Notes: a model not told the origin generated them from the letters alone. A stretch of DNA of 64,000 bases from Bacilli bacterium (GCA_022791775.1 JAAVZT010000003.1:38980-102979), one strand, 5' to 3'. Positions 1,156 to 63,246 are shown, counted from the stretch's first letter. Made by a program: numbers and translations.

Positions 1156-1662
1156 TTATTTTTGAAACTTAACAGTAATATACATTTTTTTAGAATATAG
1201 TGATTGAATACTTCGTATAATATTATTTGCTGTTTCTACACTATGATCTTTTGATTCAACAACCACACTTATTTGATCATTTTGTACTTTTACAAAACTA
1301 TTCAACTGAAATTCATCTTTAATTTTCTTTTCTAATTCTTCTTCTTTACCCTTATTCGCATTTAAGGCAATGAGTTCGTCGTATGCATCATTTTTTTCTT
1401 GTAAGGTAGCTGTATCATCCAATAAAATAGTCTGTAGTTCATTCATAGCTTTTAACATTTCTTCTTCATCATCTACTCTTAAAGCAGCCAAAATACTAGA
1501 TTCTTCAATATTAACATTTGCTGGAGTCGTGTTTTCGTTGATGTCATTGTTATTATCCAAAATTCGGGAAAGCGTATCATCACTCATAGTGACGTAATAG
1601 ATACTAAGTACTAAAATTAAACTAAAAAGCGTTACAAACCATAATCCTTGTTTATTAATCAT
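1156..1662 (-). CDS. spoIIIAH: SpoIIIAH-like membrane-anchored protein. It stands alone, with no other spoIIIA genes adjacent
   Basis: The N-terminus MINKQGLWFVTLFSLILVLSIYYVTMS closely parallels B. subtilis SpoIIIAH (MLKKQTVWLLTMLSLVVVLSVYYIMS). It has a single TM segment, an acidic linker and a conserved C-terminal domain. Confidence 0.55.
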   Translation of the reverse strand: MINKQGLWFVTLFSLILVLSIYYVTMSDDTLSRILDNNNDINENTTPANVNIEESSILAALRVDDEEEMLKAMNELQTILLDDTATLQEKNDAYDELIALNANKGKEEELEKKIKDEFQLNSFVKVQNDQISVVVESKDHSVETANNIIRSIQSLYSKKMYITVKFQK

Positions 1663-29280: not shown

Positions 29281-30540
29281 ATGGAAAGAATAAATTACTA
29301 TTTATATAAAATATTTGGTATACTAAAAGTAGGTGGAAACATGAAAAAAGTGTTAAATTTCAAAAAAGAAAATTTAAAAATTTGCTTGACTGTAATAAGT
29401 GTACTTTTAATGCTAATGGGTTTTGGCTTTTATTATTACCAAAATAATTCTGTAAATCAAGCCAAAGAATTAGAACGAAAAAGAGCGGAAAAAATAGCAG
29501 AAATCTTGCAAAAAGAAATCAATTCCTCTTTAATAGAACAAACGGAAATACAAAACACAATTATTCAAATGGTATTTCAAACAAAAGATCAAGAAAGAAA
29601 AACTTATCTAATTCGAATGCAAGATGGAGAAGAAGTAGGTTTAAAAGAATTAATTAAAGAAGAGCACATGGAAAATTTTAAAAAAAAGGTTAGAGAGTTA
29701 ATCAATTTAAAATATCCTAAATTTATTGCTGATGTTTTAAACTATGGGAATGGGACTGTATCTTACCAACTAAAAGAAAACGAATTAATTTTATATTTTT
29801 ACCAATTTATAATAAACCCGAAATTAGAAGAAGAGATAAACTTGCATGTTAATTATAACGAAATAAAAGATTACATTTCCGTTCCTGTGAAATTAGATGA
29901 TGAATATGAGGTAGAGAATGGCTATCATTATCAAAAGGATAAAAAAACAATTGCTTTAACATTTGATGATGGTCCAAATGGAAAAAGAACTCGAAAATTA
30001 TTAGAATTATTAAGTCAAAATAAAATGCACGCAACATTTTTTATGGTAGGAAATCGAATGGCTGCATCTCCGGATTTGGTAAAAGAAGTATTACAAAGCG
30101 AAAACGAAATAGGAAGTCATTCTTACAATCATAAAAATTTAAGTCGTTTACAAGTGGAAGAATTAAAAAAAGATGCAGAAAATATCAACCATATTTATGA
30201 AAGTATTACTGGCCAAAACTTACATTTATTAAGACCACCTTATGGTAGTGTAAATAATCGAATGAAAGAAAATTTAAATTACGCTTTTGTAAACTGGAAT
30301 TTAGATACAGAAGATTGGCGATATCGTGATTCAAATCATGTATATAATGCAGTGCTAAATAAAGTAGGAGATGGAGATATTATACTAATGCATGACTTAT
30401 ATGATAGCACAGTAGAAGCCGTAGAAAAATTATTGCCCGAATTATATGTACGCGGCTTTCAGGTAGTTAGTGTAACCGAGTTAGCAACCTTAAAAGGAAA
30501 AACATTAGAGCTTCATAATACATATCATTCTTTTAAATAA
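29281..30540 (+). CDS. polysaccharide deacetylase (NodB / carbohydrate esterase 4 domain) with an N-terminal TM helix and a long N-terminal extension. The likely start is the Met at 29341
   Basis: TFDDGP, HSYNH and LRPPYG NodB motifs in the C-terminal half. MKKVLNFKKENLKICLTVISVLLMLMGF is the TM anchor. Confidence 0.8.
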   Translation: MERINYYLYKIFGILKVGGNMKKVLNFKKENLKICLTVISVLLMLMGFGFYYYQNNSVNQAKELERKRAEKIAEILQKEINSSLIEQTEIQNTIIQMVFQTKDQERKTYLIRMQDGEEVGLKELIKEEHMENFKKKVRELINLKYPKFIADVLNYGNGTVSYQLKENELILYFYQFIINPKLEEEINLHVNYNEIKDYISVPVKLDDEYEVENGYHYQKDKKTIALTFDDGPNGKRTRKLLELLSQNKMHATFFMVGNRMAASPDLVKEVLQSENEIGSHSYNHKNLSRLQVEELKKDAENINHIYESITGQNLHLLRPPYGSVNNRMKENLNYAFVNWNLDTEDWRYRDSNHVYNAVLNKVGDGDIILMHDLYDSTVEAVEKLLPELYVRGFQVVSVTELATLKGKTLELHNTYHSFK

Positions 30541-31799: not shown

Positions 31800-32993
31800 A
31801 TGAAAAAAATTTATACAATACTAATTACGATTTTAGTCGTTATACTTTTAGGTGGAAGTTTTTTTTGGTTTACAAATGCTTCCAAAGAAATAGATGAAGT
31901 TGCGATATGGGCAGAAGAACAACTAAAAACACTATCCTTAGATGAAAAAATAGGTCAAATGTTAATTATATCTGATCGAACCCCTACCATGACAGAAAAC
32001 TTATTAAATACTTTAGAAATGACCAAACCAGGTGGCTTTATTTTATTTAGCGAAAACTTTACAACTTATGAAAACACACTTCAATTGATTCAAGCGTTGG
32101 AAGAAACTGCTACAATTCCCTTAATAATGTCCATCGATCAAGAAGGTGGAAGGGTACAACGACTAAAAAATTTAATCAACCAACAAGTGACCAATTTTCC
32201 ATCAATGAATGAACTAAGTTTATTTGGAACAGAAGAAAAAGCTTATCAAGTCGGAAAAGCAATAGGGGAAGAATTACGGGTATTTGGAGTTAATGTTGAT
32301 TTTGCACCCATTTTAGATGTATTAAATACTCCAAATAATGTAATTGGTAATCGTAGCTTCGGAAATAATCCATACTTAGTTTCGAAATTTGGATTAGCAT
32401 TGGCAAAAGGATTGAAAGAAGTCGGCGTAACACCTACATACAAACATTTTCCAGGCCATGGAAGTACGAGCGAAGATTCTCATCAAGAATTACCTATAAT
32501 TGAAAAAACAATCGAGGAATTAAAATCAAATGATCTCATTCCTTTTCAAAATGCTATTGAAAATGGAGCAGAAATTATTATGGTGGGACATTTAGCTTTA
32601 CCAAAAATAACCAATGACAACGTACCTGCTTCGATTTCTTCGAAAATCATAACAGAATTATTAAAAAAAGATATGAATTATCAAGGACTTGTAATTACGG
32701 ATGCCTTAAACATGAAAGCTTTAACAAATCATTTTAGCGAAAAAGAAATTATTATAAAAGCTATTAATGCTGGAGTGGATCTACTATTAATGCCTACGGA
32801 TCCAAAAAGAACCATTAAAATTATAAAACAAGGAATTTTAGATCATGAAATAACAGAAGAGCAAATTAATGACTCTGTCAATAAAATATTACAATTTAAA
32901 AAAAGAAATATAACCAATTTAAAATTAAATCGAGAATATTTAGGAAAGAAAGAACATCAAGAACTAATAGAAAGTTTGAAAAAAAATGAGTAA
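31800..32993 (+). CDS. nagZ: glycoside hydrolase family 3 N-terminal domain protein (beta-N-acetylhexosaminidase NagZ-like), membrane-anchored
   Basis: KIGQMLII, DQEGGRVQRL and KHFPGHG motifs of GH3. N-terminal TM anchor. Confidence 0.8.
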   Translation: MKKIYTILITILVVILLGGSFFWFTNASKEIDEVAIWAEEQLKTLSLDEKIGQMLIISDRTPTMTENLLNTLEMTKPGGFILFSENFTTYENTLQLIQALEETATIPLIMSIDQEGGRVQRLKNLINQQVTNFPSMNELSLFGTEEKAYQVGKAIGEELRVFGVNVDFAPILDVLNTPNNVIGNRSFGNNPYLVSKFGLALAKGLKEVGVTPTYKHFPGHGSTSEDSHQELPIIEKTIEELKSNDLIPFQNAIENGAEIIMVGHLALPKITNDNVPASISSKIITELLKKDMNYQGLVITDALNMKALTNHFSEKEIIIKAINAGVDLLLMPTDPKRTIKIIKQGILDHEITEEQINDSVNKILQFKKRNITNLKLNREYLGKKEHQELIESLKKNE

Positions 32994-40214: not shown

Positions 40215-41378
40215 ATGAAAAACTTAATAAGTAAAATGGATAAGCCGCTACTTATTTTAATGATCCTATATTCCGTATTAGGATTAGTTATGATTTTAAG
40301 TGCTTCTAGTGTTTCAGCAGTACTGAGATATCATGTATCATCTTATTATTTTTTTATACGTCAAGCAATTTTTATAATCGGTTCTTTTATGATTGGCTTT
40401 GGTTTTGTACTCCGCTTTCCAACCAGCAAATATAAGTATGTTACACCTTTAATGGTTTTTGGAATTATAATTGCTTTAGCTGGATTATTTATATACGGTA
40501 AAATATCAAATGGAGCGCAAAGTTGGTATCGTTTAGGTTTTTTTAATTTACAACCCACCGAATTTGCCAAATCGGTTATTATTATTTATATGGCAGTTTT
40601 TTATGGAAAGAGTCTCAAAAAGAAAAAAACTTTATACTATAATTTAATTCCTGTGGCAGTTGCAATTTGCTTTTTTGTTTTAATAGCGATGCAACCAGAT
40701 TTAGGTGGTGCAATCATCATTGCTGGGATTTCCTTTTTTCTATTTAATATTGTTCCTCTTGATAAAGCTGGTAAAACGAAATTAATTAAAGTGTTAGGTA
40801 TTGGAGGAGTCTTAGTAGGAGTACTGGTTTTATATAGTGGAACCGAACTTTTAAATGCTATGCAAATGAGTCGTCTTCAATTTAAAAATCCTTGCAGCCG
40901 CTATGCTGAAAATACGGGGTATCAAGTTTGTAATGGTTTTATTGCCATTCATAATGGCGGGGTATTTGGTGTAGGCCTTGGAAATTCCTCGCAAAAATAT
41001 TTATATTTACCTGAAGCACATACTGATTTTATTTTTCCCATCATAGTCGAAGAATTGGGATTGTTATTTGGAATTATAGTTATAATAGGATATGGTTATA
41101 TGTTATATCGTATCTTAAAAATTGCCAAGCATGCGGATAATCCTCGAGGATCGATATTAGCTTATGGTACCTTTTTGTTGATTTTATTCCATTTATTAGT
41201 AAATTTAATGGGTATTTTAGCTTTAATTCCCTTAACAGGTGTTCCATTGCCATATTTAAGTTATGGTGGTTCTTTTACCATTAATGTTGTTTTAATGACG
41301 TTTGTAGTTCAAAGAGTAGCTATTGAAACCAAAATGAATCAAACCAAAAGAGAAATTTCAAAACTTGGTCAAAATTAA
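40215..41378 (+). CDS. SEDS-family peptidoglycan glycosyltransferase (FtsW/RodA/SpoVE)
   Basis: 10-TM topology. HNGGVFGVGLGNS and the PLTGVPLPYLSYGGS C-terminal motif. Confidence 0.85.
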   Translation: MKNLISKMDKPLLILMILYSVLGLVMILSASSVSAVLRYHVSSYYFFIRQAIFIIGSFMIGFGFVLRFPTSKYKYVTPLMVFGIIIALAGLFIYGKISNGAQSWYRLGFFNLQPTEFAKSVIIIYMAVFYGKSLKKKKTLYYNLIPVAVAICFFVLIAMQPDLGGAIIIAGISFFLFNIVPLDKAGKTKLIKVLGIGGVLVGVLVLYSGTELLNAMQMSRLQFKNPCSRYAENTGYQVCNGFIAIHNGGVFGVGLGNSSQKYLYLPEAHTDFIFPIIVEELGLLFGIIVIIGYGYMLYRILKIAKHADNPRGSILAYGTFLLILFHLLVNLMGILALIPLTGVPLPYLSYGGSFTINVVLMTFVVQRVAIETKMNQTKREISKLGQN

Positions 41379-41398: not shown

Positions 41399-42124
41399 TT
41401 GTATATGTATAATAGGAGGTTTCTTATGGAAATAACAGAATTTATTTATCATCATAAAATCACCTTGTTGGTGGTACTATTACTGGGAATAGGGTGTGTT
41501 TTTGTTGGATATACATTATTTACGGAAGAGCAAAAAAATGAATTAACAGAAATAAGCGATAGTACAGAAATAGAAGAACAAAAAGAAGAAGAAATTTTAC
41601 CAAAAGAGCTAGAATTGACAGAAACTCAAAAAGAAATGATAAGTGTGGATATAAAAGGAGCCATAGAAAAACCAGGAGTCTATCAAGTGCCAAAAGATAC
41701 GCGTATTCATGAAGGAATTGATTTAGCAGGTGGATTAACAGAAACAGCTTATACAGGTAATCTAAATTTGAGTAAGAAAATGCATGATGAAATGGTAATT
41801 TATATTTATACCTTAAAAGAATATCAAAAAAAAATCACCTGTATTCCGAAAAATGATTATGAAGGGGAAATAACACAAGAGATTTTAGAAAAAGAATCCA
41901 TAACAGAGAAGAAAGAGAGTAGTTCCTTAAATTTTCCCATTTCTATCAATGAAGCAAAAATGGAAGATTTGTTAGAAATAGATGGGATTGGGAAATCAAA
42001 AGCGGAAAATATTATTCAATATAGAGAAACCAACGGACCCTTTAAAAACTTAGAAGAATTAAAAGAAGTTAGTGGAATAGGGGAAGCGATTTACGAAAAA
42101 ATTAAAGATCGATTGGTCCTTTAA
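41399..42124 (+). CDS. comEA: competence protein ComEA (helix-hairpin-helix DNA receptor)
   Basis: N-terminal TM segment, SLBB-like middle and C-terminal tandem HhH (LLEIDGIGKSKAENII, VSGIGEAIYEKI). Confidence 0.8.
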   Translation: MYMYNRRFLMEITEFIYHHKITLLVVLLLGIGCVFVGYTLFTEEQKNELTEISDSTEIEEQKEEEILPKELELTETQKEMISVDIKGAIEKPGVYQVPKDTRIHEGIDLAGGLTETAYTGNLNLSKKMHDEMVIYIYTLKEYQKKITCIPKNDYEGEITQEILEKESITEKKESSSLNFPISINEAKMEDLLEIDGIGKSKAENIIQYRETNGPFKNLEELKEVSGIGEAIYEKIKDRLVL

Positions 42125-42287
42125 TCACTTTCTAGCTTGGTGCCTTTTCTTCACCAGTTGTTATATTATATGGAATATTCAGAATCCTCAGAAATCTTCA
42201 TTTTCTTCCAATCAATTTGTTTTTATAAGTGGTAAGGTATTAGAATACTCTTGGTCAGAAAAAAATCAATTATCCGTAAAATTAAAA

Positions 42288-44120
42288 TTGCCACAAGAAA
42301 ATATGATTGGATATTATTCTAATGAAAAAGAAAATTTCTTTTTAAAACAAAATATTATGATCGGTTCTACGATAAGAATAAAAGGAAAATTAAAAGCTCC
42401 AAGTCATAATACTATTCCCAATACTTTTTCCTATCGTAAATATTTGAAAAGTCAAAATATTTTCTTTGAAATAGAAATAGAAGAAATAGAGCTCATAAAA
42501 CAAGGGGGATTATTAGCCCAAGTGCGAAAATGGATCATCAATCGTTGCAACCGGTTTCCATACGCTTCCTATTTAAAGCAAATTTTGCTAGGAATAAAAG
42601 AGAAAACTGATATCGAAGAGGTGTATCGTCAAAATGGTTTAAGCCACATCTTTGTCATTTCTGGAATGCACATGGGGATGATTTACCAATGGTTTCAAAA
42701 ATTTTGCTCCCGAAAAGTATCTACAAAAAAATCTCAATTAATAGCACTCATTATCTTAACGATTTATCGTTTATTAATTATTCCATCTGCTTCAAGTAAA
42801 CGTGCATATTCTTTTTTTGTTTTTCTGAGTTGGAATAAATGGTCAAAGATAAACTTATCTACGAAACAAATATTTTGGTTTAATTTATGTTTTCATCTGA
42901 TACAAAATCCCAGCTCTATATTCCAAATTAGTTTTCAATATTCATTTTTATTGTCTTTTGCTTTTCTCTATTTTAAAAAGAAATCCTCCAATCAAATATG
43001 GAATCTTTTTTATCATAGTTTATTAGCCTTTTTATTTAGTCTTCCAATTACAGCCTATTATCAATATGCAATAAATCCATGGTCGATTCTAATCAATTGT
43101 ATTATGCTTCCTATTATCACAAAAGTTCTATTTCCATGTTTAATCCTCAGTTTTGCTATTTTCCCTCTTCAGATTTTCGCTTCTAAATGGATCCATATTA
43201 TTGAGAAACTCAATACATATTTTTTTAAGATGCCTGAAAGAGAGTGGATATTACCGAAAGTTCATCCGATTTTACCCATTTTATATTTTCTAATTTTAAT
43301 TTTATTATTGAAGTTTAAAAAAAGAATATTTCGATTTATCTTAGTTTTAATTTTGTTATTTTGGCATTATTATTATAAATTAGATTACCATGGATATCTT
43401 TTCTTTTTGGATGTAGGACAAGGGGATAGTTGTCTCATTATATCACCCTATCAAAAAGAAGTTATTTTGTTAGATACTGGATATAAAAATAAATATTTAA
43501 CAGATAATTTCCTAGTGTTTTTAAAAAGCTATGGTCTTCAAAAAATAAACTTATTAATACTATCACACGGGGATAATGATCATCTAGGAAATGCCAAGGA
43601 ACTTTTAAAAAAAATAGAAATAGATTACATTTGGATGAATGAGGGAAGAAAAAATGCAGCAGAAATAGAACTTGAAGAAACGTATCCCTCAAAAATTATT
43701 ACAAAATATCAACCAATTAATTTAAGTTTTCATAACTTAAGCCATGTAAAAAGAACCACCGAAAATGAAAATAGTCTTGTATTTCATATTTGTATCTATA
43801 AGATGTGTACGTTATTTTTAGGAGATTTAGATAGGACTGGTGAAGAAGAAATTATAAGAAAATATCATCTAAATGCCTCCTTATTAAAAGTAGCACATCA
43901 TGGAGCAAAAACAAGCACAAGTGAAGAACTTTTAAGAAAAATACAGTTTAAAATGGCAATTATTAGCGCTGGGAGAAATAATCAATATCTTCATCCCCAT
44001 AATGAAGTACTAAAAAAACTGGCAAAGTATCAAATTACTATTTTAAATACTCAAGAACAAGGAACCATAAGTTGGAAAATAACCCCTAAAAGATACACCA
44101 TAATAACAAATCCACCATAA
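42288..44120 (+). CDS. comEC: DNA internalisation competence protein ComEC/Rec2. The listed ORF starts at TTG. The in-frame N-terminal TM/OB region extends upstream to about 42081 without a canonical start codon
   Basis: Competence domain with many TM helices and a C-terminal metallo-beta-lactamase domain (FLDVGQGDSCLI...HHGAKTSTS). Upstream in frame is FNHFLAWCLFFTSCYIIW (a TM segment) and a DUF4131-like stretch. Confidence 0.75.
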   Translation: MPQENMIGYYSNEKENFFLKQNIMIGSTIRIKGKLKAPSHNTIPNTFSYRKYLKSQNIFFEIEIEEIELIKQGGLLAQVRKWIINRCNRFPYASYLKQILLGIKEKTDIEEVYRQNGLSHIFVISGMHMGMIYQWFQKFCSRKVSTKKSQLIALIILTIYRLLIIPSASSKRAYSFFVFLSWNKWSKINLSTKQIFWFNLCFHLIQNPSSIFQISFQYSFLLSFAFLYFKKKSSNQIWNLFYHSLLAFLFSLPITAYYQYAINPWSILINCIMLPIITKVLFPCLILSFAIFPLQIFASKWIHIIEKLNTYFFKMPEREWILPKVHPILPILYFLILILLLKFKKRIFRFILVLILLFWHYYYKLDYHGYLFFLDVGQGDSCLIISPYQKEVILLDTGYKNKYLTDNFLVFLKSYGLQKINLLILSHGDNDHLGNAKELLKKIEIDYIWMNEGRKNAAEIELEETYPSKIITKYQPINLSFHNLSHVKRTTENENSLVFHICIYKMCTLFLGDLDRTGEEEIIRKYHLNASLLKVAHHGAKTSTSEELLRKIQFKMAIISAGRNNQYLHPHNEVLKKLAKYQITILNTQEQGTISWKITPKRYTIITNPP

Positions 44121-49535: not shown

Positions 49536-50684
49536 ATGAAAAAAATAACCTTAAAAAAAGACTATAGCATTAAGTTAAAGAGTCAAATAACAAAACATTT
49601 TATGCCGCAGTATGTTTACTTACCCATTCCAAAAGAAGATGAGTTATTCTCTAAAATACAAGTTAAAAAAGAAGAAAAAATTTCTAAATACTTGGTTTCT
49701 CCTGTATCAGGCAAAATTGTAGGTATAAAATATTGTCAAAATGCTTTAGGGGAAATTTTAAAATGTTTAACGATTTTAAATGATTATAAAGAAACTTACA
49801 TCAAACGGACATCAATTCGAAAAAATATTCAACAGTTAAGCCTAGAACAAATAGTGTTAGAATTAAAGGAATATCAATACCATGAAATCGCCGAGAAGCT
49901 TTGGCAGCAAAAAAATGCTAAAATACTTATTTTAAATGGAATCGAAGAAGAACCTTATGTTGCCAATGAAATTTTTTGTAATTTAACGAATCCAAGTATT
50001 ATGTTAGAGATGCTAGATGCTCTAAAAGAAATGAATACATATGAAGAAGTAAAAATAGTAATAAAAAATACAGATCGAGAAAATATTGAAGCATATCATA
50101 ACTTTTTAGGTACTTATCCAAATATGGAGCTTGTATTGGTACCCGATTTTTATCTCGTATCAGAATTCTTAGAGGATTATATGGAATTAAAAAAAGATTA
50201 TCTACTTCTTAAACCCAGTGAATTAAAAATAGCCTATAATGTTTTAAAACGTCGTCATTATCAAACCGAACACTTATTTACAATTAGCGGTGATGGCATT
50301 ACCAATCCCCAAATGATAGAAGCAAAATTGGGAAGTTCTGTTACGGAAATTATGCAAACATATATTCATTTCAAAAAAGAACCATTGAAAATATATATAA
50401 ATGGTATAATGAGAGGAAGAATAACTTCTCTAGAAAATATGATTGTAACTCCAGATCTGCAAGCTATTTTAATTATGAAAGAGTCAACAATTGAAGAAAA
50501 ACTTTGCATTAATTGCGGAAAATGCTATCAAGTTTGTCCCAAAGGATGTAATCCAAGAGCATATTTAGAAAATCGGAATAAAGAAGCCATAAAAAATTGT
50601 ATAGATTGTGGATTATGTTCTTATATATGTCCATCGTTTATTAACCTAAGAAAGGAAATGCAAGATGAAAAGAGAGAAGAATAA
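49536..50684 (+). CDS. RnfC-like protein (degenerate): N-terminal barrel-sandwich domain, ILILNGIEEEPY in place of the NGAECEPY motif, and two 4Fe-4S ferredoxin motifs at the C-terminus
   Basis: VSPVSGKIVGI resembles RnfC_N. CINCGKCYQVCP and CIDCGLCSYICP are two CxxCxxCxxxCP clusters. The Cys of the ECEP motif is replaced by Glu. Confidence 0.5.
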   Translation: MKKITLKKDYSIKLKSQITKHFMPQYVYLPIPKEDELFSKIQVKKEEKISKYLVSPVSGKIVGIKYCQNALGEILKCLTILNDYKETYIKRTSIRKNIQQLSLEQIVLELKEYQYHEIAEKLWQQKNAKILILNGIEEEPYVANEIFCNLTNPSIMLEMLDALKEMNTYEEVKIVIKNTDRENIEAYHNFLGTYPNMELVLVPDFYLVSEFLEDYMELKKDYLLLKPSELKIAYNVLKRRHYQTEHLFTISGDGITNPQMIEAKLGSSVTEIMQTYIHFKKEPLKIYINGIMRGRITSLENMIVTPDLQAILIMKESTIEEKLCINCGKCYQVCPKGCNPRAYLENRNKEAIKNCIDCGLCSYICPSFINLRKEMQDEKREE

Positions 50685-51627
50685 TCGGCCTTACTTAACC
50701 CAGTTTCAACCAAATGAATACCAAAAATATATAACCTATTCCTTAATCTTTTTGCTATGCTATGGTTTTTATAAAAATGGACTTTTACCAATCTTTCATC
50801 AGGACGCCAATATTTGGTATCTACTAAAATTAATGATTTATCCAATCGGAGGCTATCTTTTTGGAAAAATATCAGAAAAATATGGAAAAAATCAAAATGG
50901 CTTTTATGCATTTTACGGATTATTGATAGGAATGAGTATGCCCATTCAGCTAAATTGGTTGCTATTTCTTCTAATATTAGGAATATTATTTTGGCTTTTT
51001 CAAATCTTTTTAGCAAACATAAAATGGTTCAGTCCCTTATTACTAAGTAGAGGTATTTTTTCGCTTTTGATTGTGATAAACTCAGTATCTTTTTTAAATC
51101 CAAGCGAAGGAAATCAGGAAATGGTGTACACCACCTTAGACATATTTTTTGGTAGAAGTATTGGAGGAATTTATACTACAAGCATTTTTTGGCTTTTTAT
51201 TACTTTTTTAATTTTATGTTTTCATGATTTGTACAAAAAAGAAATCCCTGTTTTTGTTTTAATAACCTATATCATGAGTGCTTTATGCTTTGAAATTTTT
51301 CTTCCAACTGGAAATCTTCTTTTAACTATCTTAAATTCTTCCACCATTTTTGCAAGTATATTTCTAGCTTCGGAAATAGTCTCTGCACCCTATATAGATA
51401 AAAGTAAATGGACTTATGGAATACTAGTTGGTTTCTTTGGGTTTCTGTTTGTTCGCTTTATAAATGTCCAAGAAGGGATTTATTTAAGTCTAGCCTTATG
51501 TAGTTTTCTTCCTCCTTTATTGGATAAATGGTTTTATCATAGGCAAAAAAAGAGAAGTTTTGTCGATTCATCAAAGCCAAAAATACCTTTTGCAAAAAAT
51601 AACCTTCCAAAATTAAAAAAATCTTAA
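50665..51627 (+). CDS. RnfD/NqrB-like polytopic membrane protein (divergent)
   Basis: Position directly after the RnfC-like gene (overlapping by 20 nt). 8-10 TM helices. The FMN-attachment and Gly-rich RnfD motifs are not evident. Confidence 0.4.
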   Translation: MKREKNNRPYLTQFQPNEYQKYITYSLIFLLCYGFYKNGLLPIFHQDANIWYLLKLMIYPIGGYLFGKISEKYGKNQNGFYAFYGLLIGMSMPIQLNWLLFLLILGILFWLFQIFLANIKWFSPLLLSRGIFSLLIVINSVSFLNPSEGNQEMVYTTLDIFFGRSIGGIYTTSIFWLFITFLILCFHDLYKKEIPVFVLITYIMSALCFEIFLPTGNLLLTILNSSTIFASIFLASEIVSAPYIDKSKWTYGILVGFFGFLFVRFINVQEGIYLSLALCSFLPPLLDKWFYHRQKKRSFVDSSKPKIPFAKNNLPKLKKS

Positions 51628-51755
51628 ATAAATTTTCTTAAATCGTCAAAAAAAGGACTTTAATTTTATAAATTAGAGTCCTTTTTTCATGTCTTTACAA
51701 ATAAAAAAAACGATTTTATAGTATGACTGCGATTCGCAAATAGAAAGGAAAAATT

Positions 51756-53198
51756 ATGAAAAAGCTATTAAAATATCTCTTGTTGGGAGTTGGAATTTTT
51801 TTCATTGGGAAAGAAATAAGTTCTGCAGGAAGTGCTTTTTATTTAGAGCCAGCACCAAATGGATTAACCTATAAGATTAACAAAGGCTATAAAACAGTAA
51901 GACTTTATTTTCAAATGGTGCAAGATCGGATAACAAAAGAATATATTTATTGTTTAGAACCAGGGGTTCAGTTAAGTAATCAAACATATGAAGAATGGAA
52001 TGAATGGGATTACAATAAATTTAACTTAAGCAAAGAGCAAAAAGATTTTATTGTAAGAGTAGCATATTATGGTTATGGATATCAAAATCATACTAGCCTA
52101 GATTATTACTATGCAGCTCAATTATTAATATGGGAGAAAATTATTCCAAAAGATTGGGACATTTACTATACAACATCTTTAGACGGAGAACGCATTTTAC
52201 TTTATCAAAAAGAGCGAGAAGATATATTAACTTTAATTGAAAATGATCAAAAAAATTCTGCCTTTGAAAATCAAGTATTTGAGTGGAATGACAAAGAATC
52301 TCTTTATATAGAAGATCAAAATGGAGTGTTAAAAGATTATCGGCTTTTAACCAATTCAAGTTGGAAAATTACTCATAGCGGAAATTCGCTTCAAATTCAA
52401 AATACAAATTTACAAGAACAAGTTTTAGAATTTGAAAAAACATATGAAGGAGAACCTTTAAAATTTTATTGGCAAGAAGAAGGTCAAAAGGTATTAAAGC
52501 GAGGAAGTATCATTCCAAGACGATTTCGTATGACGCTAAAGCCGTTTCACATAAAGTTAGAAATAGATAAACAAAATGAAGAAAAAGAACCACTTGAAAA
52601 AGTTTTGTTTCACTTATATGCTAAGGAAGATATTAAAGATAAAGAAGAAAATATTCGTTTCCAAAAAAATGACAAAGTAGCAGAAGGTTGGACTGATCAA
52701 AACGGCAAAATAATTTTTGATAATTTATGGTCTGGAAATTACTACTTAAAAGAAATGGAATCTCCTAAGGATTACCAGTTATTAGAAGAAGACATACCAA
52801 TTACATTAGAAAAAGAATCAAAACATATCGTCATTCAAAATGAAAAAAAGAAACAAGATTTAATTCTTCAAAAAGTGGATAGCGATTCCAATGTTCCGTT
52901 GTCAAAAGTACGCTTTCAAATCAAAAATGCTCAAGAAGAGATCGTGTTTGATGGTCGAACAGACGAAAACGGGCAAATAATTTTAAAAGACCTACCAGTT
53001 GGAGATTATATAATTTTGGAAATAGAAACGATCGAAGATTACATCTTATTAAAAGAACCGCTTCGGATTACTTTGAACGGAGAAACATCGAAAACAGAAA
53101 TCAAAATTACTAATCGTAAAATAAAAAAAGTTCCAGATACCTACCAAAAAAGAATATGGATAGAATGGTTTTGGATTGATAGGAAAAGATACACATGA
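51756..53198 (+). CDS. secreted adhesin/pilin-like protein: signal peptide, putative thioester domain (YCLEP...AQLLIW), CnaB/SpaA-type domains and a C-terminal non-canonical sorting signal VPDTYQ + hydrophobic segment + DRKRYT
   Basis: CnaB signatures WTDQNGKIIFDNLWSGNYYLKEMESPKDY and TDENGQIILKDLPVGDYIILE. The C-terminal architecture mimics an LPXTG sorting signal. A sortase gene lies downstream. Confidence 0.6.
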   Translation: MKKLLKYLLLGVGIFFIGKEISSAGSAFYLEPAPNGLTYKINKGYKTVRLYFQMVQDRITKEYIYCLEPGVQLSNQTYEEWNEWDYNKFNLSKEQKDFIVRVAYYGYGYQNHTSLDYYYAAQLLIWEKIIPKDWDIYYTTSLDGERILLYQKEREDILTLIENDQKNSAFENQVFEWNDKESLYIEDQNGVLKDYRLLTNSSWKITHSGNSLQIQNTNLQEQVLEFEKTYEGEPLKFYWQEEGQKVLKRGSIIPRRFRMTLKPFHIKLEIDKQNEEKEPLEKVLFHLYAKEDIKDKEENIRFQKNDKVAEGWTDQNGKIIFDNLWSGNYYLKEMESPKDYQLLEEDIPITLEKESKHIVIQNEKKKQDLILQKVDSDSNVPLSKVRFQIKNAQEEIVFDGRTDENGQIILKDLPVGDYIILEIETIEDYILLKEPLRITLNGETSKTEIKITNRKIKKVPDTYQKRIWIEWFWIDRKRYT

Positions 53199-54169
53199 AA
53201 AAAAATTTATTAATCATCTTTTGTTTTCTTTTTCTCTTTTTAAAAAATACGAAAGCTAGCATGTTAAATTTTCATGTCACAGAATGGGTTCCAACTACTT
53301 ATCAAATAAATGATACATTAACTTCATTTCAAATTTATCAGAGCAATAATACAGAGCATTTTATGTATCAAGTAAGTCCTTTAGAAAAAATAAAATACCA
53401 AACAGATTATAAACAAAGTTCTCATTTAGAAGAAATGGATCGCACCGAATTAAATAAAATTAAATATTGGATTAGCGAGACCGAAAAATCAGAAGACATT
53501 AATGATAAATATTACTTTTATGTTAATATTCAACTTCTGATATGGAAACTCTTTCACCCCGACATTGAGGTGGAAATGGTAGGAAATAAAGAGTTGGTCG
53601 AAAAATATTATGATAAATTATTATTACTTCTTCCGAATCCACCAAATTGGGTACATGACTATGAAATGCAAGAAGAAATCATCTTAGAAGTCAGTGACCA
53701 ATATGAGATTATTTCAAATCAGTGTGAGGTAGAAAAAAACGAAAACCAAATCATTTTAACCAAATGTGAAGACAATGCCAAAATTGAAGTAAAAGAAAAA
53801 GGAGAAGATACCATCTTAGCGTTAGAAGATAAAACTGGAGAATTAAAAGTATTAGAAGGAGGAAATTTCCCTTGGACTTGGGAATTTCAGATCCTGCCTT
53901 CTAAACGGCCTGAAATTCCAGAAGAAAAGCCAAATCCTCCGATAAAAGAGGAAGAAGAAAAGCCAAATTCTCAACCGGAAGAGAAACCAGAGGACTCCAA
54001 TGACAATTTAAATTCGGATAAAATAGATAAGTCAGAAAATTTACCCAATCAATCAGAGTATGAAGAAGAAAAAAGAGTAATTACAAATGTTCCTAATACT
54101 TATCAAAGTTCTTTTGAAATTTTATGGCTCTTTCTCTTCCTCCTAGGAATTTATCAGTGGAAAAAATAA
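53195..54169 (+). CDS. paralogous secreted protein with a C-terminal VPNTYQ sorting-signal-like tail and a Pro/Glu-rich linker. It lacks the thioester Cys (YQVSP instead of YCLEP)
   Basis: Shares ...TYQIN..., ...QLLIW... and the C-terminal (K/N)VPxTYQ + hydrophobic segment + KK with the upstream gene. PEEKPNPPIKEEEEKPNSQPEEKPE is the stalk-like linker. Confidence 0.55.
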   Translation: MKKNLLIIFCFLFLFLKNTKASMLNFHVTEWVPTTYQINDTLTSFQIYQSNNTEHFMYQVSPLEKIKYQTDYKQSSHLEEMDRTELNKIKYWISETEKSEDINDKYYFYVNIQLLIWKLFHPDIEVEMVGNKELVEKYYDKLLLLLPNPPNWVHDYEMQEEIILEVSDQYEIISNQCEVEKNENQIILTKCEDNAKIEVKEKGEDTILALEDKTGELKVLEGGNFPWTWEFQILPSKRPEIPEEKPNPPIKEEEEKPNSQPEEKPEDSNDNLNSDKIDKSENLPNQSEYEEEKRVITNVPNTYQSSFEILWLFLFLLGIYQWKK

Positions 54170-54699
54170 AATATTTTCTGATCTTGCTTCTGATTTTTCT
54201 TTTATTTTGGGGATCAAGTATCAATTTCAGCAAAGAAATATTAAGAACTGAAACTCAGCAAAAAGACATGAATGAATATCTAAATCAAACGAATAATCAG
54301 CCTTTATTTGGAATTTTAGAAATCCCTAAAATTAATTTAAAACAACCCATTTATCCCAAAGATGACCCAAAAAATCAAGTGGATAAAAATATTACACTTT
54401 TAGAAGAAGACGTAACTCAAAATGTACCAAACCCAGTTATCATCCTGGCCTCTCATTCTGGAAATGGTCCATATGCATACTTTAAAAATTTGACATCCTT
54501 AAAAGAAGGAGATGCCATTTTTTTATGGCTAAAAAGCGAGCAAAAAGAATATCGGTTGATAAAGAAAGAAGAAGTAATGAAAAATGAAACCCTATATGTA
54601 AAAACATTTTCTTTTTCTCATTTAATTTTAATAACTTGTAGTAAAACAAATTCGAAAATTCAAGAGATATATTATGCCAAATATATTTCAAATAAATAA
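54124..54699 (+). CDS. srtA: sortase (class A-like transpeptidase). The probable start is the GTG at 54157
   Basis: Aligns by eye with S. aureus SrtA: GILEIPKINLKQPIYPK, LASHSG (His), FKNLTSLKEGDAIFL, LILITC (TLxTC catalytic Cys). N-terminal TM anchor KIKYFLILLLIFLLFW. AGGAA lies 9 nt before the GTG. Confidence 0.8.
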   Translation: MALSLPPRNLSVEKIKYFLILLLIFLLFWGSSINFSKEILRTETQQKDMNEYLNQTNNQPLFGILEIPKINLKQPIYPKDDPKNQVDKNITLLEEDVTQNVPNPVIILASHSGNGPYAYFKNLTSLKEGDAIFLWLKSEQKEYRLIKKEEVMKNETLYVKTFSFSHLILITCSKTNSKIQEIYYAKYISNK

Positions 54700-54737
54700 A
54701 AAATGCAAAAAAAATGGTTATTTTGCATTTTTTTGTT
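54700..54737 (+). terminator. rho-independent terminator after the sortase gene
   Basis: aaaatgcaaaa / ttttgcatttt 11-bp stem followed by T-run. Confidence 0.6.
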
Positions 54738-58907: not shown

Positions 58908-60530
58908 ATGAATATGAATCCAACCACTGTAGAATCTAATAATAAAAATCCTTTCAAATTGCCATCTTTAGGTCTATTTATTACCTTTAAAACTATTGTG
59001 GAATATGTTATCTTAATTATTCAATTTGCTTTTCGCGGCTTTAAATTTTTAACAATTGATTTATTCATGGCTCTTTATAACGCTCTAAGTGGAGGAGTCG
59101 ATCATGCCTATCAAAAAACAAAACATATCGTCACAAAGGATAATATTGCTCCATCTACAGCTCCTAAAAAAGAAAGCATTTTAAATGCAGATCTATCAAC
59201 ATTATTTAAAAATTCCTTTTTTATGAAAAAAAAATTAGCCAAATTAGAAGCTCAGAAAATAGCCTTAGCAGAAGAACTAAAAGGAAATGGAGCTATCCGT
59301 TCTAAAGAACCCAAAGTATTTAAATTTACTGCCAAAAACAAAAATGGTAAAATTGAATCAGGGGTAATTAGTGGGTTTAGTAAATTAGATGTTAATACGT
59401 TCTTAGTTCAAGAAGAATACGAAGTATATAATATTATATCAAACGAGTGGACCGAATTTATATATGGACAAACAAGCATCTTTACTCCAAAAATGAAAAC
59501 GAAAGACTTATTATTTTGGTTAACACAATTATCTACTTATATTAAAAGTGGAATTACTTTAACAGACTCAATTAAAATCTTAAATAACCAAATGGGCAAA
59601 AACAAAAATTATAAAAGAGCTTTTCAGTCAATTGTTTACGAGTTAACCATGGGGGAATCATTCTCGAAAGCTTTAGAAAAACAAGGTGTCATGTTTCCAG
59701 CCTTACTCATCAATATGATTAAAGCTGCAGAGGCAACTGGTGAATTAGAAGAAACGTTGAGTGATATGGCCAATTATTACGATGAAATTGATAAAACCCA
59801 TAAACAAATGATCAGTGCAATTACCTATCCATCTGTTATTTTAGTATTTTCCATTGCAGTTATTACATTTATCTTAGTTTTTATCATTCCGCAATTTGTT
59901 GAAATTTATAAAGAATCTGAAGTAGAAATAAATGGTTTAACCTTATTTATTATCCATATGAGTGATTTCTTGAAAGAAAATATAGGATTTTTATTGATCA
60001 TTGCTATAGCGAGCATTGCAGTATTAATCTTTTCTTATCAAAAAGTAAAAGCATTTCGAAAAAGTATGCAAACTTTTTTAATGCATGTTCCCGTTTTTGG
60101 CAAAATTATGATATATAATGAAATGGCTGTTTTTGCCAAAACATTTTCTTCCTTATTACGAAATAATGTATTTATTACCGAAAGTATTGATATTTTGAGT
60201 AAGATTACAAATAATGAGATTTATAAAGAAATTATGTATAATACCATTAATAATATTGTAAAAGGGGAAAAAATAAGCGAAGCCTTTAAAAACCAATGGG
60301 CTGTTCCAGAAGTGGCATATTATATGATCGTAACAGGAGAATCAACTGGGCAATTAGCAGAAATGATGAGCAAAGTTAGTAGCTATTACCAAGAAATGCA
60401 TCGTAGTATTATTTCCAGCTTAAAAGCCTTCATAGAACCAGTATTGATTACCTTTCTTGCTGTAATTGTCGGAGGAATCATTTTAGCTGTTATTGTACCA
60501 ATGTTTAATTTAATGAACCAATTTGGGTAG
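58908..60530 (+). CDS. comGB: type II secretion / type IV pilus / competence platform protein (GspF/PilC/ComGB family) with a roughly 130-aa N-terminal extension
   Basis: Two T2SSF domains starting near FKFTAKNKNGKIESGVISGFS. GGGAGG ribosome-binding site before the ATG at 58908. Confidence 0.75.
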   Translation: MNMNPTTVESNNKNPFKLPSLGLFITFKTIVEYVILIIQFAFRGFKFLTIDLFMALYNALSGGVDHAYQKTKHIVTKDNIAPSTAPKKESILNADLSTLFKNSFFMKKKLAKLEAQKIALAEELKGNGAIRSKEPKVFKFTAKNKNGKIESGVISGFSKLDVNTFLVQEEYEVYNIISNEWTEFIYGQTSIFTPKMKTKDLLFWLTQLSTYIKSGITLTDSIKILNNQMGKNKNYKRAFQSIVYELTMGESFSKALEKQGVMFPALLINMIKAAEATGELEETLSDMANYYDEIDKTHKQMISAITYPSVILVFSIAVITFILVFIIPQFVEIYKESEVEINGLTLFIIHMSDFLKENIGFLLIIAIASIAVLIFSYQKVKAFRKSMQTFLMHVPVFGKIMIYNEMAVFAKTFSSLLRNNVFITESIDILSKITNNEIYKEIMYNTINNIVKGEKISEAFKNQWAVPEVAYYMIVTGESTGQLAEMMSKVSSYYQEMHRSIISSLKAFIEPVLITFLAVIVGGIILAVIVPMFNLMNQFG

Positions 60531-60538
60531 GGGGATTT

Positions 60539-61306
60539 ATGAATTATTTGAATACAACATTCTTTATCATAATTGGAGCCATTTTAGGTTCCTTTTATGC
60601 TGTAATTGGGACAAGACTTCCCAAAAACGAATCTATTATATCACCGAGAAGTCACTGTGAATATTGTGGACATATATTATCTTGGTATGAGTTGATCCCA
60701 ATTCTTTCCTTTTTCTTCCAAAAAGGAAAATGCAGAAACTGTCATCATCATTTATCATCTATGTATCCATTAACAGAATTGGCAACAGGACTATTATTTG
60801 GAATATCCTATTATTATTTTGGAATATCTGAGAAATTTTTTCATTTGCTTCTTTTATCTAGCCTAGTCATAATTATATTTGTTAGTGATATGAAATATAT
60901 GATTATACTTGATTCGCCTTTAGTAATAAGTGGAATTGGAATCTTTTTATTAAATATTAGTTTCCATGGCATAGAAAAAGCGTTATTAAGTTTAGGAGCG
61001 GGATTTCTTTCCTTTTTGACCCTTTTTTTTATTGGAAAATTAGGAAACATTTTATTTCAAAAAGAAGCGATGGGTGGGGGAGATATAAAACTATCTTTTA
61101 TTATGGGAATGAGTTTAGGATACAAAATGTATTTAATTGCATTTATCTTAGCGACTTTCTTAGCCTTACCTTATGCGTTAGGATGTCTATTTTTCCAAAA
61201 AGATCATGAAGTTCCTTTTGGACCTTTTTTAGTATCTTCATTATGGATTGTCTTTTTCTTCTATGAAAAATTTCATTATATTATAACTTTTTTATTAAAC
61301 CTTTAA
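60539..61306 (+). CDS. comC: prepilin peptidase (A24 family; PilD/ComC)
   Basis: N-terminal CxxC...CxxC zinc motif (CEYCGH...CRNCHH), 8 TM helices, and the catalytic Asp region GGGDIKL. Confidence 0.85.
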   Translation: MNYLNTTFFIIIGAILGSFYAVIGTRLPKNESIISPRSHCEYCGHILSWYELIPILSFFFQKGKCRNCHHHLSSMYPLTELATGLLFGISYYYFGISEKFFHLLLLSSLVIIIFVSDMKYMIILDSPLVISGIGIFLLNISFHGIEKALLSLGAGFLSFLTLFFIGKLGNILFQKEAMGGGDIKLSFIMGMSLGYKMYLIAFILATFLALPYALGCLFFQKDHEVPFGPFLVSSLWIVFFFYEKFHYIITFLLNL

Positions 61307-61338
61307 CGAATTCAAAACAATATGATATACTAAAGAAG

Positions 61339-61848
61339 GTGAGAAGTATGTTAGATTGGCTAACTAAAGAATTAGCTTGCATAGGATTTATTGGAAGCAT
61401 TATAGTATTTCTTCTATGCTTTCCATGGATTAAAAAAATATACAAACATTATGAAGAAATTATGAATTACTTAATCGTGGGGGTTTTAACAACCATTGTT
61501 AGCTTAGTAATTTATTATGGACTTGTATTTACGATATTAAATCCAAACAAAGCCTTAGAGTTACAAATTGCTAATATAATATCCTGGATCGGGGCAGTTT
61601 TATTTGCGTATATTACCAATCGGCGCTATGTATTTAAAAGTCAGAATAAAGAAACAAAAAAAGAATTTTGTTCCTTTTTTGGCTCTCGATTATTAACCTT
61701 AGGACTAGATATGGGAATTATGTTTTTAGGTGTAACCATATGTCATCAAAGTGATAAAAGTATGAAATTGCTCTCACAAATATTAGTAATTATAGGCAAT
61801 TATATTTTAAGTAAATTATTTGTATTTAAAAAGAAAACGGAAAAGTAA
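61339..61848 (+). CDS. GtrA-family membrane protein
   Basis: 4 TM helices. NRRYVF and the GNYILSKLFVF C-terminus are typical of GtrA. Confidence 0.65.
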   Translation: MRSMLDWLTKELACIGFIGSIIVFLLCFPWIKKIYKHYEEIMNYLIVGVLTTIVSLVIYYGLVFTILNPNKALELQIANIISWIGAVLFAYITNRRYVFKSQNKETKKEFCSFFGSRLLTLGLDMGIMFLGVTICHQSDKSMKLLSQILVIIGNYILSKLFVFKKKTEK

Positions 61849-61857
61849 TTTCCGTTT

Positions 61858-63246
61858 TTAAATGTCTAACGTTTCTAAAGCCGTTTCTTCACTGCTAGGT
61901 TCTACTTCTAAACTTTTTTTACCAAAAATAGCATCTTTAATTGCACTATCATGTTCTCCTAAGTCATCATCCACATCAATAACTCGTAATACTTCTTCGA
62001 AACTAGTAAGACCCTCTAAAACTTTATAAAGCCCGTCTTGTAAAATAGAAATCATATCTTGATTTTCATAAATCAAATGTCTCAAGTCTTCCTTTTTCAT
62101 ATTATTTACAATAGCATCTCGTAAATCTTGATTAATAATTAATACTTCATGTAAGGCTACTCGGCCATGATACCCATGATAACATTCGTTACAGCCCACA
62201 GGTGTATAAATATCAGTAATATCCATATTGAGTGCACTTTTAAAAACTTTTTGCTCATAAGGAGTTGCTTTTCGACTACTTCTACATTTTGGACACAATT
62301 TTTTACATAATCGTTGGGAAATAATACCTTCTAGGGCACTTCCTAATAAATATCGTTCTACATCCATATCGACAAGTCGTTCAATTGTATTTAGAGAGTT
62401 ATTTGTATGAATAGTAGATAAAACTAAGTGTCCAGTAATAGAAGCTCGAACGGCAATCCGGGCTGTTTCATTATCACGAATTTCTCCGATCATAATTACA
62501 TCGGGATCTTGACGAAGAATGCTTCGTAAAGCGCTCGCAAAGGTTAAACCAATTTCACTCATCGTTTGGACCTGATTGACTCCATTTAATTTCATTTCGA
62601 CTGGATCTTCAACAGTAATTACGTTGCGACTAATCGTATTTAATCGTTGTAAGATCGTATAAACTGTAGTAGACTTACCTGTCCCAGTGGCTCCAGTTAC
62701 TAATATAATTCCATTCGGCTTAGAAATCACTTTTAAGAGTTTTTCATAATTTGCTTCGGAAAATCCCAAAGTTTCCAAACCGCCAAGACTCATGGAATAA
62801 TCTAAAATACGGATAACCACTTTTTCTCCATACACAGTTGGCAGGGAACTGACACGCAAATCCAAATTAAGACCATCTACATTACTGCGAATCGCCCCAT
62901 CTTGAGGAAGACGAGATTCTGTAATATTCATTCCAGAAATAATTTTAATGCGAGTAATCAAATTCTTTTTTACAGCCATGGGTACTTCTGCATATTGAAT
63001 GAGTTCTCCATCAACTCGAATTCGCACAATTAAATTCCCAGGGGTTTGATCAAAATGAATATCACTTGCTTTTCGTCGCGCTGCATCAATTATCATATCA
63101 TTTACAATATCTACAATTGGCATATTGTCATAATCGTAATTCTTTAACACAAAATCACCAGTTCCTTTTATTCTTTCACTTATTATACAAAAAAAACCTT
63201 CAAAGAACAAGTTATAATCATAGATTTCAGATTCAAAATACGACAA
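61858..63246 (-). CDS. comGA: type II/IV secretion ATPase (GspE/PilB/ComGA family)
   Basis: Walker A VTGATGTGKSTT, Asp box, Walker B VIMIGEIRD, His box, and a C-terminal tetracysteine CxxC...CxxC. Confidence 0.85.
   Translation of the reverse strand: MSYFESEIYDYNLFFEGFFCIISERIKGTGDFVLKNYDYDNMPIVDIVNDMIIDAARRKASDIHFDQTPGNLIVRIRVDGELIQYAEVPMAVKKNLITRIKIISGMNITESRLPQDGAIRSNVDGLNLDLRVSSLPTVYGEKVVIRILDYSMSLGGLETLGFSEANYEKLLKVISKPNGIILVTGATGTGKSTTVYTILQRLNTISRNVITVEDPVEMKLNGVNQVQTMSEIGLTFASALRSILRQDPDVIMIGEIRDNETARIAVRASITGHLVLSTIHTNNSLNTIERLVDMDVERYLLGSALEGIISQRLCKKLCPKCRSSRKATPYEQKVFKSALNMDITDIYTPVGCNECYHGYHGRVALHEVLIINQDLRDAIVNNMKKEDLRHLIYENQDMISILQDGLYKVLEGLTSFEEVLRVIDVDDDLGEHDSAIKDAIFGKKSLEVEPSSEETALETLDI

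Follow-up and report, generated by a model that had tools for sequence, protein, structure and literature searches.

A VPxT-type sortase locus of gut Bacilli with a thioester adhesin and its candidate partner

A stretch of 64,000 nucleotides from a Bacilli bacterium (GCA_022791775.1, JAAVZT010000003.1:38980-102979), referred to below as the window, carries on its plus strand, within positions 51756 to 54737, the genes for two secreted proteins, named P1 and P2 here, and for a sortase. The reading that we favour is that these genes form a chromosomal three-gene operon, which would produce a covalently assembled surface adhesin, with P1 ligated to P2, in an uncultured low-GC gut member of the Bacilli that is probably walled. 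Judged from the sequences, the probability of this whole model is about one half. Its functional core, namely a sortase with two substrates that carry a VPxT signal, is very likely to be right; the ligation of P1 to P2, taken by itself, has slightly less than an even chance.

A first-pass annotation of the same DNA had proposed a sortase with two substrates bearing a non-LPXTG motif. This proposal is supported. The three open reading frames (ORFs) and the positions of the two C-terminal tails were found again, both tails read exactly as they had been quoted, and LPXTG is indeed absent from both substrates. The observation is real and goes beyond chance. Its interpretation was right in kind and wrong in three details: the definition of the motif, the class of the sortase and the nature of the P1 tail.

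Two substrates and their recognition motif

The motif was defined from 33 C-terminal tails, encoded at 24 non-redundant loci with related sortases. V, P and T are each found in 33/33 tails. The x position is occupied by Asn in 26 of them, by Lys in 4, by Asp in 2 and by Leu in 1. The residue after Thr is of 13 kinds (K 7, Y 6, G 5, L 3, S 3, N 2 and single I, E, A, F, R, D and V) and its entropy of 3.28 bits equals that of unconstrained flanking positions. Indeed, the substrates of one and the same genome differ here (Y/K in L001, L/Y in L009, I/Y in L010, G/A in L011 and E/L in L029). Because the post-Thr residue is free, and variable even between the substrates of a single genome, the recognition core is VPxT and not VPxTYQ, the conserved site that had been deduced from the two tails of the window. 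It is the conservation of VPxT that marks it as the recognition site, while Tyr-Gln is not conserved among the orthologues and appears, on this alignment, to be a peculiarity of this genome. Outside the core, Glu occupies the second position after Thr in 17/33 tails and Ile or Leu the third position before V in 26/33. VPxT occurs 3 times in the 19,679 amino acids (aa) of ORF translation of the window, always in P1 or P2. P2 also contains VPTTYQ (residues 32-37, window 53288-53305), close to its mature N-terminus and reminiscent of the C-terminal VPNTYQ; it is not conserved in the orthologues and is probably due to chance.

VPKTG is seen in L004, L018 and L019 and in P1 of L011, that is, in several deep branches. 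Gly therefore looks ancestral and the constraint on this position would have been relaxed later, VPKTG being the likely ancestral form. VPxTG is already known as a pilin-type motif, as in RrgC (VPDTG), Cpa (VPPTG) and PitB (VPETG). A literature search of incomplete coverage, which amounts to absence of evidence only, returned no description of VPxT-X signals or of sortases devoid of the Arg.

Another protein of the window ends in a canonical signal. It is a secreted protein of 570 aa (27391-29103, plus strand) without a Pfam match, made of about 14 tandem Cys repeats of about 29 aa (C.ILSDGTRYGKNGTIVDELTYQKECERNV), and it terminates in NPQTG, a membrane segment and KKKNRFL. This would make it a third sortase-type substrate, so that either a second sortase exists or the sortase described here also reads xPxT-G.

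P1 (51756..53198, plus strand, 480 aa) comprises a signal peptide, a thioester domain, two SpaA/CnaB domains, VPDT and a short basic tail; orthologues were found at 8 further loci. The CnaB/SpaA domains had been noticed in the first pass and are recovered by Pfam SpaA (PF17802) in two stretches (4.6e-31, 107 bits). The thioester domain (TED), which had gone unmentioned, matches Pfam PF08341 (4.6e-08, 33.8 bits against a cut-off of 22). In a PDB search the closest solved structure is BaTIE (6fwv, 8.5e-13), and SaTIE-TED (6fx6) also matches. Given the TED and the BaTIE match, the former label of MSCRAMM-type adhesin is better replaced by that of a TIE-type thioester adhesin. The core of the thioester domain (51945..52172) contains Cys66 (51951-51953, within YCLEPGV) and Gln122 (52119-52121, within YYAAQLLIW), both invariant in alignment A5 of seven orthologues. 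With these residues kept, the thioester bond is predicted to form, and P1 reads as a secreted class-II TIE-type adhesin in which the Cys and Gln of the thioester are intact. The two SpaA/CnaB-type domains (52551..53120) are delimited by the Pfam match and by two sets of residues, K272-E333-N362 and K373-E424-N453, invariant in the same alignment. By analogy, both sets would form isopeptide bonds.

The VPDT core of P1 (53130..53141, residues 459-462), whose V, P and T are invariant in 9/9 P1 orthologues, is followed by an 18-aa tail, YQKRIWIEWFWIDRKRYT (53142..53195), with an aromatic patch, a basic end and no membrane-spanning segment. On the Kyte-Doolittle scale no 15 consecutive residues after Thr score above -0.85, and runs free of charged or amide residues reach 4 residues at most. 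Hydropathy is negative in all of the 8 P1 tails scored (best 15-residue values of -0.41 to -2.15), and a ninth, that of L029, is of the same membrane-less type as judged by inspection. These tails run to 18-21 residues and contain a small patch of aromatic or aliphatic residues; their basic end, IYE[EK]KRK, is conserved. Since P1 has no membrane segment, it carries no tripartite signal of the LPXTG style. Of the two tripartite tails claimed earlier only that of P2 survives, as it has both a hydrophobic segment and a basic end, whereas P1 has the basic end alone.

P2 (53195..54169, plus strand, 324 aa) consists of a signal peptide, a Cys-less TED-like region, an acidic stalk rich in Pro, Glu and Lys, VPNT, a membrane segment and KK. 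It matches no Pfam or NCBIfam model and has orthologues at 9 further loci. Protein searches for a wider P2 family yielded, besides the query, no more than a copy with 89% identity and a single orthologue; P2 probably diverges too fast for a word-index search to find its relatives. Its residues 1-230 (53195..53884) align with residues 1-260 of P1 (hhalign probability 95.5%, E 1.4e-8). The two proteins, described earlier as paralogues, are so in their N-terminal 230-260 residues and not in the remainder. At the position aligned to Cys66 of P1, every P2 orthologue has Gln, Ser or Thr (YQVSPL in the window), QLLIW (Q..IW) is kept, and the region has two invariant Cys of its own, C177 and C191. P2 lacks the thioester Cys of the TIE, or thioester-domain, adhesins. 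Its mature N-terminus, A-x-x-L/I-N, is conserved among the orthologues. The acidic Pro-rich stalk (53885..54088) has a net charge of -10 across the 70 aa preceding the motif, and the charge lies between -5 and -13 in 9/11 P2-type tails, a count that takes in the fusion protein of L007 described below. The VPNT core follows (54089..54100), with V299, P300, N301 and T302 invariant in alignment A3, and then the hydrophobic segment FEILWLFLFLLGIYQW with its KK (54113..54166), which provide the membrane anchor and the basic end of the sorting signal. The membrane segment is 16 residues long, with a best 15-residue hydropathy of 2.00. Values of at least 1.4 are reached by 10/10 P2 tails and by 12/13 tails from loci with a single substrate.

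The sortase and its active site

The sortase ORF (54124..54699, plus strand) is 191 aa long when counted from the ATG at 54124. It matches Pfam PF04203 (4.5e-12, 46.3 bits against a cut-off of 26.6) and the generic model TIGR01076 (52.6 bits against 39.35). Among the class-specific hidden Markov models (HMMs) the best score is that of the class C model NF033745, at 52.1 bits against a cut-off of 160. Below their cut-offs as well are class D (31 against 165), SrtD (33 against 140), class E (17.6 against 160) and GN (16.4 against 158), and the NCBIfam models of classes A, B and F gave no match at E<=0.1. As all class-specific models (A-F and GN) fail, the sortase is left unclassified. The earlier call of a SrtA-like enzyme was thus correct as to the sortase, its LILITC motif and its overlap with P2, but not as to the class, since no class A match was found; the HMM classing proposed at that time places the protein in no class at all.

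Structural comparison gives a similar picture. The AlphaFold 2 (AF2) model, of pLDDT 91.1, shows an N-terminal membrane helix (residues 12-31) and then a sortase barrel. Foldseek matches it with a probability of 1.00 to sortases of classes A, C and E about equally (E ~1e-9), the same multi-class picture is obtained by profile search against PDB sequences, and hhalign against Staphylococcus aureus SrtA gives 98.2%. The model, Foldseek and hhalign agree on the eight-stranded beta-barrel of sortases. The lid motif of class C, DP[WFY], is absent from residues 32-62 on inspection, and the model has only a short helix there (43-53).

In alignment A1, which holds 31 sortase sequences, the sole invariant residues of catalytic type are His111 (codon 54454..54456, within HSGNG) and Cys172 (54637..54639, within LITC), the latter ending strand beta7 of the model. 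There is no conserved Arg anywhere in A1. The position of the canonical catalytic Arg is held by Gln180 (54661..54663), at the start of strand beta8, conserved in at least 90% of A1. In a wider set of 195 family sequences L[IVT]TC is present in all; in about 190 of them the pattern is L[IVT]TC-x(5-8)-Q with a hydrophobic strand behind it. Arg takes the place of Gln in two (P0049 and P0050), and three contain neither. The spacing of 8 between Cys and Gln is that between C208 and R216 of Streptococcus pyogenes SrtA, and in P0049 the Arg shares an alignment column with Q180. The register Q-E-I-Y-Y-A-K matches what we take to be R197-K-I-F-V-A-T of S. aureus SrtA, which is partly confirmed by the alignments of the PDB search. 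The hhalign alignment with S. aureus SrtA ends just past LITC, where loop lengths differ, and stops short of Arg197; a PDB query of 66 aa gave no match. Taken together, the register, the conservation, the strand boundaries of the model and P0049 argue strongly that Gln180 replaces the catalytic Arg. To our knowledge the His-Cys-Arg triad has been treated as universal among sortases, and a large natural clade with Gln is a direct test of what the Arg does. As to its size, an exhaustive HMMER search against clusters at 50% identity gave 620 representatives at E<=1e-30 and 2,798 at E<=1e-10. If it is true that such an enzyme accepts any post-Thr residue, its VPNT core, orthogonal to LPXTG, would be of use in sortase-mediated protein ligation.

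Beside the Arg-type P0049, at 6647-7939 of L025, is a TED/SpaA protein that ends in RLPVTGM (motif LPVTG). Beyond two stop codons the frame continues with a hydrophobic stretch, VLVYIFIFTYF. Nonsense codons seem to have separated the membrane part of this signal from the rest, through either decay or sequence error. The pairing of P0049 with LPVTG is a single correlation, suggestive of a link between Arg and Gly-type motifs.

Assembly of P1 and P2 and the alternatives

The model that we propose has four steps. P1 and P2, which have signal peptides, would first be exported by the Sec pathway. The membrane-anchored sortase would then recognize V-P-(N/D/K)-T and, as the conserved residues lead one to expect, cleave after Thr by means of Cys172 and His111; with Gln180 in place of the usual Arg it would ignore the residue that follows Thr. 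In the third step P2 would act as the envelope-proximal subunit, most likely being transferred to peptidoglycan. Finally, P1 would most likely be ligated at or near the mature N-terminus of P2, which would yield a two-subunit, stalked adhesin. Atop the acidic stalk, the thioester of P1 would then attach covalently to a ligand of a host or partner, as it does in other TIE adhesins.

Three observations lead to the last step: P1 and P2 are fused in one natural case, their genes are translationally coupled, and the membrane-less P1 tail co-occurs exactly with P2. In L007 (12-1919, contig CAOKLK010000060.1) P1 and P2 form one ORF, with the sortase gene directly after it. The fusion reads NRKIERVPDT-LEEKSEG and then ILLNYRTN, the conserved mature N-terminus of P2. 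The basic end of P1 and the signal peptide of P2 have thus been deleted in frame, the internal VPDT is kept, and the C-terminus retains VPNTYE and the membrane segment. BLASTP scores the protein at 7e-94 to P1 and 3e-19 to P2, and the DNA is clean. The fusion would indicate that the C-terminus of P1 and the N-terminus of P2 are neighbours in the functional assembly. The stop codon of P1 and the start codon of P2 share ATGA, an overlap found in every two-gene locus, and the membrane-less P1 tail occurs exactly where P2 is present. The charges are complementary, the P1 tail being basic and the P2 stalk acidic. Coupling, co-occurrence, charge and fusion together are the grounds for linking P1 to P2. 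The membrane-less signal and the fusion point to heterodimeric adhesins made by a sortase, an arrangement between wall anchoring and pilus assembly.

Several observations weigh against this model. The fusion is known from a single MAG (metagenome-assembled genome) contig of 5.1 kb, and a metagenome scan for more P1 loci or fusions returned no second one. The lone substrate of L024 also has a membrane-less tail and no P2-like partner was found near it, so that a partner is no strict requirement for the membrane-less state. A stalk is missing from most relatives with a single substrate, and the stalkless state of P1 therefore says little. The structural model of P2 is unusable (pLDDT 39.5), and alignment A3 has no invariant Lys in mature P2; a Lys does recur near the boundary between folded domain and stalk, where the alignment is unreliable. 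In the absence of the catalytic Arg the chemistry of the sortase could differ or its activity be weak. Finally, the NPQTG protein elsewhere in the window hints that the genome may have other sortases.

The metagenome scan did return one unrelated TED protein, L030. This TED/SpaA protein (780-2201), encoded beside an insertion sequence (IS)-like gene, ends in NIPHTSIDINIIYYIECKNDF, with IPHT-S (IPHTS) and a short membrane-less tail. It may be another example of an anchor-less signal; its contig ends before any sortase gene.

The alternative that survives best, though we consider it rather unlikely, is that P1 and P2 are each anchored on their own by the sortase, the acceptor being the peptidoglycan cross-bridge (lipid II), in a manner comparable to housekeeping sortases or to those of classes B, D and E. 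The operon would then simply encode two adhesins, and the fusion in L007 would be incidental. This is what the relatives with a single substrate suggest (L004, L014-L021, L023, L026 and L027), where a like sortase is paired with one TED/SpaA protein that ends in VPxT-X, a membrane segment and a basic end. The peptidoglycan genes of the window, described below, and the fact that the solved TIE adhesins have been described as sortase-anchored wall proteins are also in line with it. However, P1 is without a membrane segment in 9/9 loci. From classical work, a membrane segment is needed to retain precursors for sorting. Separate anchoring also fails to account for the exact co-occurrence of the membrane-less tail with P2, for the translational coupling of the two genes and for a fusion junction placed at the mature N-terminus of P2.

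It is also conceivable that the loss of the Arg has left a degenerate sortase, either inactive or acting as a shedding protease. P2 would then be a plain membrane protein, P1 would be released, and VPxT would be a structural or cleavage site only. The Gln in place of the catalytic Arg, the unconstrained post-Thr residue and the lack of a membrane anchor in some substrates would all fit. We regard this as improbable: in some 195 sequences the His and Cys are invariant, and the clade, a large one, is under purifying selection. Moreover, the sortase gene always adjoins, and usually overlaps, that of a VPxT-bearing TED protein, on chromosomes as well as on conjugative elements, and VPxT is kept behind two unrelated contexts, a SpaA domain and an acidic stalk.

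Least probable of all is a true multi-subunit pilus, with P1 as tip adhesin, P2 as polymerising shaft or base and the sortase as a class C-like pilin polymerase: VPxTG-type motifs are indeed typical of the pilins RrgC, Cpa and PitB, class C is the top class-specific HMM, and a TED tip adhesin beside a sortase resembles the FCT loci of group A streptococci (GAS), but the class C score is 52 bits against a cut-off of 160, inspection reveals no DP[WFY] lid motif N-terminal to the barrel, P2 has no YPKN-type pilin motif, invariant Lys or CnaB/SpaA domain, its long disordered acidic stalk is unlike a shaft pilin, and there is a single sortase.

Returning to the model of P1-P2 ligation, it is possible, and we put this forward tentatively, that the enzyme stands for an unrecognised class of sortases. 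The class would be spread over gut Bacilli and their conjugative elements, with at least 620 clusters at 50% identity. Its members would have a His-Cys-Gln active site, read only V-P-x-T and take anchorless substrates, and the one encoded in the window would ligate P1 to the N-terminal region of P2, the Cys-less paralogue that forms the wall-anchored stalk.

Genomic setting and comparison with known systems

A terminator-like hairpin with an 18-pair stem and a T-run (51649..51687, plus strand) lies 3' of an rnfD-like gene and forms the 5' boundary of the operon. It is followed by a promoter-like site, TTTACA-17-TATAGT (51694..51722, plus strand), with 10/12 consensus matches, 34 nt 5' of the P1 start; promoter-like sites are no more frequent in this region than in shuffled sequence, and the site is a consensus match only. 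Between the sortase start and the end of P2 there is an overlap of 46 nt if the ATG at 54124 is used, or of 12 nt with a GTG at 54158, which would give the short MxKK-type N-terminus typical of the family relatives. Just 3' of the sortase stop is an AT-rich hairpin with a T-run (54700..54737, plus strand; -10.3 kcal/mol, z = -2.5 versus shuffles). It was not picked up by a consensus terminator scanner and is probably a weak terminator that marks the 3' boundary. Because a hairpin and a promoter-like site precede P1 and a weak hairpin follows the sortase, the three genes are taken to form one operon.

Public gene calls shorten two of these genes. The sortase is started at Met49 (P0001, 143 aa), which removes the membrane helix (window 54124-54270), and P2 at an internal Met, inferred to be Met23 (P0051, 302 aa), which removes the signal peptide (window 53195-53260). 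The family alignments fit the longer ORFs better. An rnfC-like and an rnfD-like gene stand directly upstream of the adhesin operon, in the window (49536-51627, plus strand) and in all syntenic relatives. They form an orphan pair, as genes for further Rnf or Nqr subunits are absent from the surroundings, and the terminator hairpin lies between them and the operon.

At NCBI, a protein of a MAG titled 'Bacilli bacterium' has 100% identity to the sortase of the window. Its relatives occur in MAGs of gut origin (mouse, rabbit, chicken and other sources), whose titles are uncultured Bacilli, Tenericutes, Erysipelotrichaceae and Candidatus Faecimonas. Genomes were scanned for related loci with an alignment of 17 close sortase sequences. 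In the near clade the order uvrC, rnfC-like, rnfD-like, P1, P2, sortase, dnaG, rpoD, trmK is kept at sortase identities of 38-54%. That gene order is conserved despite such divergence argues that the operon is old, vertically inherited and chromosomal. More distant members have the sortase and a single TED/SpaA protein. Such single-substrate loci lie on chromosomes in L004, L014-L019, L024 and L027. Those of L021-L023 and L026 lie on DNA resembling conjugative elements, with ParA/ParB, TnpV, SSB and TraG-like genes and SNF2 helicases of 2,300 aa, which suggests that the pair of Gln-type sortase and adhesin also serves there as a mating adhesin module.

The window encodes a SpoIIIAH-like protein (1156-1662, minus strand), a polysaccharide deacetylase (29281-30540), a GH3 NagZ-like enzyme (31800-32993) and an FtsW/RodA/SpoVE protein (40215-41378; 1.6e-77), and relatives carry Amidase_3, SleB-like and Mur ligase genes. 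The idea of a wall-less host, which came from the 'Tenericutes' labels, is rejected for this genome by the peptidoglycan genes in the window and in the relatives. A cell wall is likely in view of those in the window, and these genes point to a host that is walled despite its 'Tenericutes'-labelled relatives and possibly sporulating. A 2024 survey reported srtA and srtB to be absent from some Mycoplasmatales-related orders, in which several families are predicted to be without peptidoglycan (PMC10868615). Surveys of this kind, based on the KEGG orthology (KO) entries for srtA and srtB, would miss sortases as divergent as the present one, and surface display in these gut lineages is probably underestimated.

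Genes of a type IV pilus/competence system are also found near the operon: T2SSF, T2SSE (minus strand), ComEA-like and ComEC-like (58908-63246; 41399-44120). One gene in these regions has syntenic homologues with prepilin-peptidase (A24) domains. This second system, for surface filaments or DNA uptake, is unrelated to the adhesin operon.

Among the systems described, the GAS FCT pilus (Cpa/Spy0125 with VPPTG, SrtC2/Spy0129) likewise has a TED adhesin beside a dedicated sortase and a V-P...T motif. Cpa is joined to another subunit and not directly to the wall, much as we propose for P1 and P2. The GAS system differs in that Gly is kept after Thr, the sortase is class B-like with His-Cys-Arg, and there are a polymerising shaft pilin and the chaperone SipA. 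Compared with it, the window locus has Gln for Arg, a free post-Thr residue, no shaft pilin and a membrane-less P1. In S. pneumoniae, too, a sortase other than the housekeeping one reads a V-P-x-T core, as with RrgC (VPDTG) and SrtC-3 or PitB (VPETG). In these systems, however, the Gly after Thr is conserved, the sortases are of class C with lid and Arg, and the signals are fully tripartite. Classes B (NPQTN) and D (LPNTA) are precedents for a residue other than Gly after the scissile Thr. There the residue is fixed by class, as Asn in B and Ala in D, whereas here it varies within the clade and between substrates of one enzyme.

The class II TIE adhesins BaTIE, SaTIE and EfmTIE86 have the order seen in P1: signal peptide, Cys-Gln TED, CnaB/SpaA domains with isopeptide residues. 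According to the account of Miller et al. 2018 given in PMC8092201, the C-termini of these proteins have a canonical LPXTG followed by a membrane segment and a basic tail, and standard sortases are assigned to them. P1, unlike them, has VPDT-Y and an 18-aa membrane-less tail and is accompanied by a Cys-less paralogue. TIEpLS20, from the Bacillus subtilis plasmid pLS20, is a TED/CnaB adhesin without canonical sorting signal that is linked to conjugation, and may be compared with L021, L023 and L026. Plasmid pLS20 has no sortase gene, and TIEpLS20 works without host sortases (PMC8092201), whereas in the family described here a sortase gene is always adjacent and VPxT is conserved. The window locus comes closest in logic to the tip of the GAS FCT pilus and to the sortase-anchored class-II TIE adhesins, as an unusual variant of Gram-positive surface anchoring.

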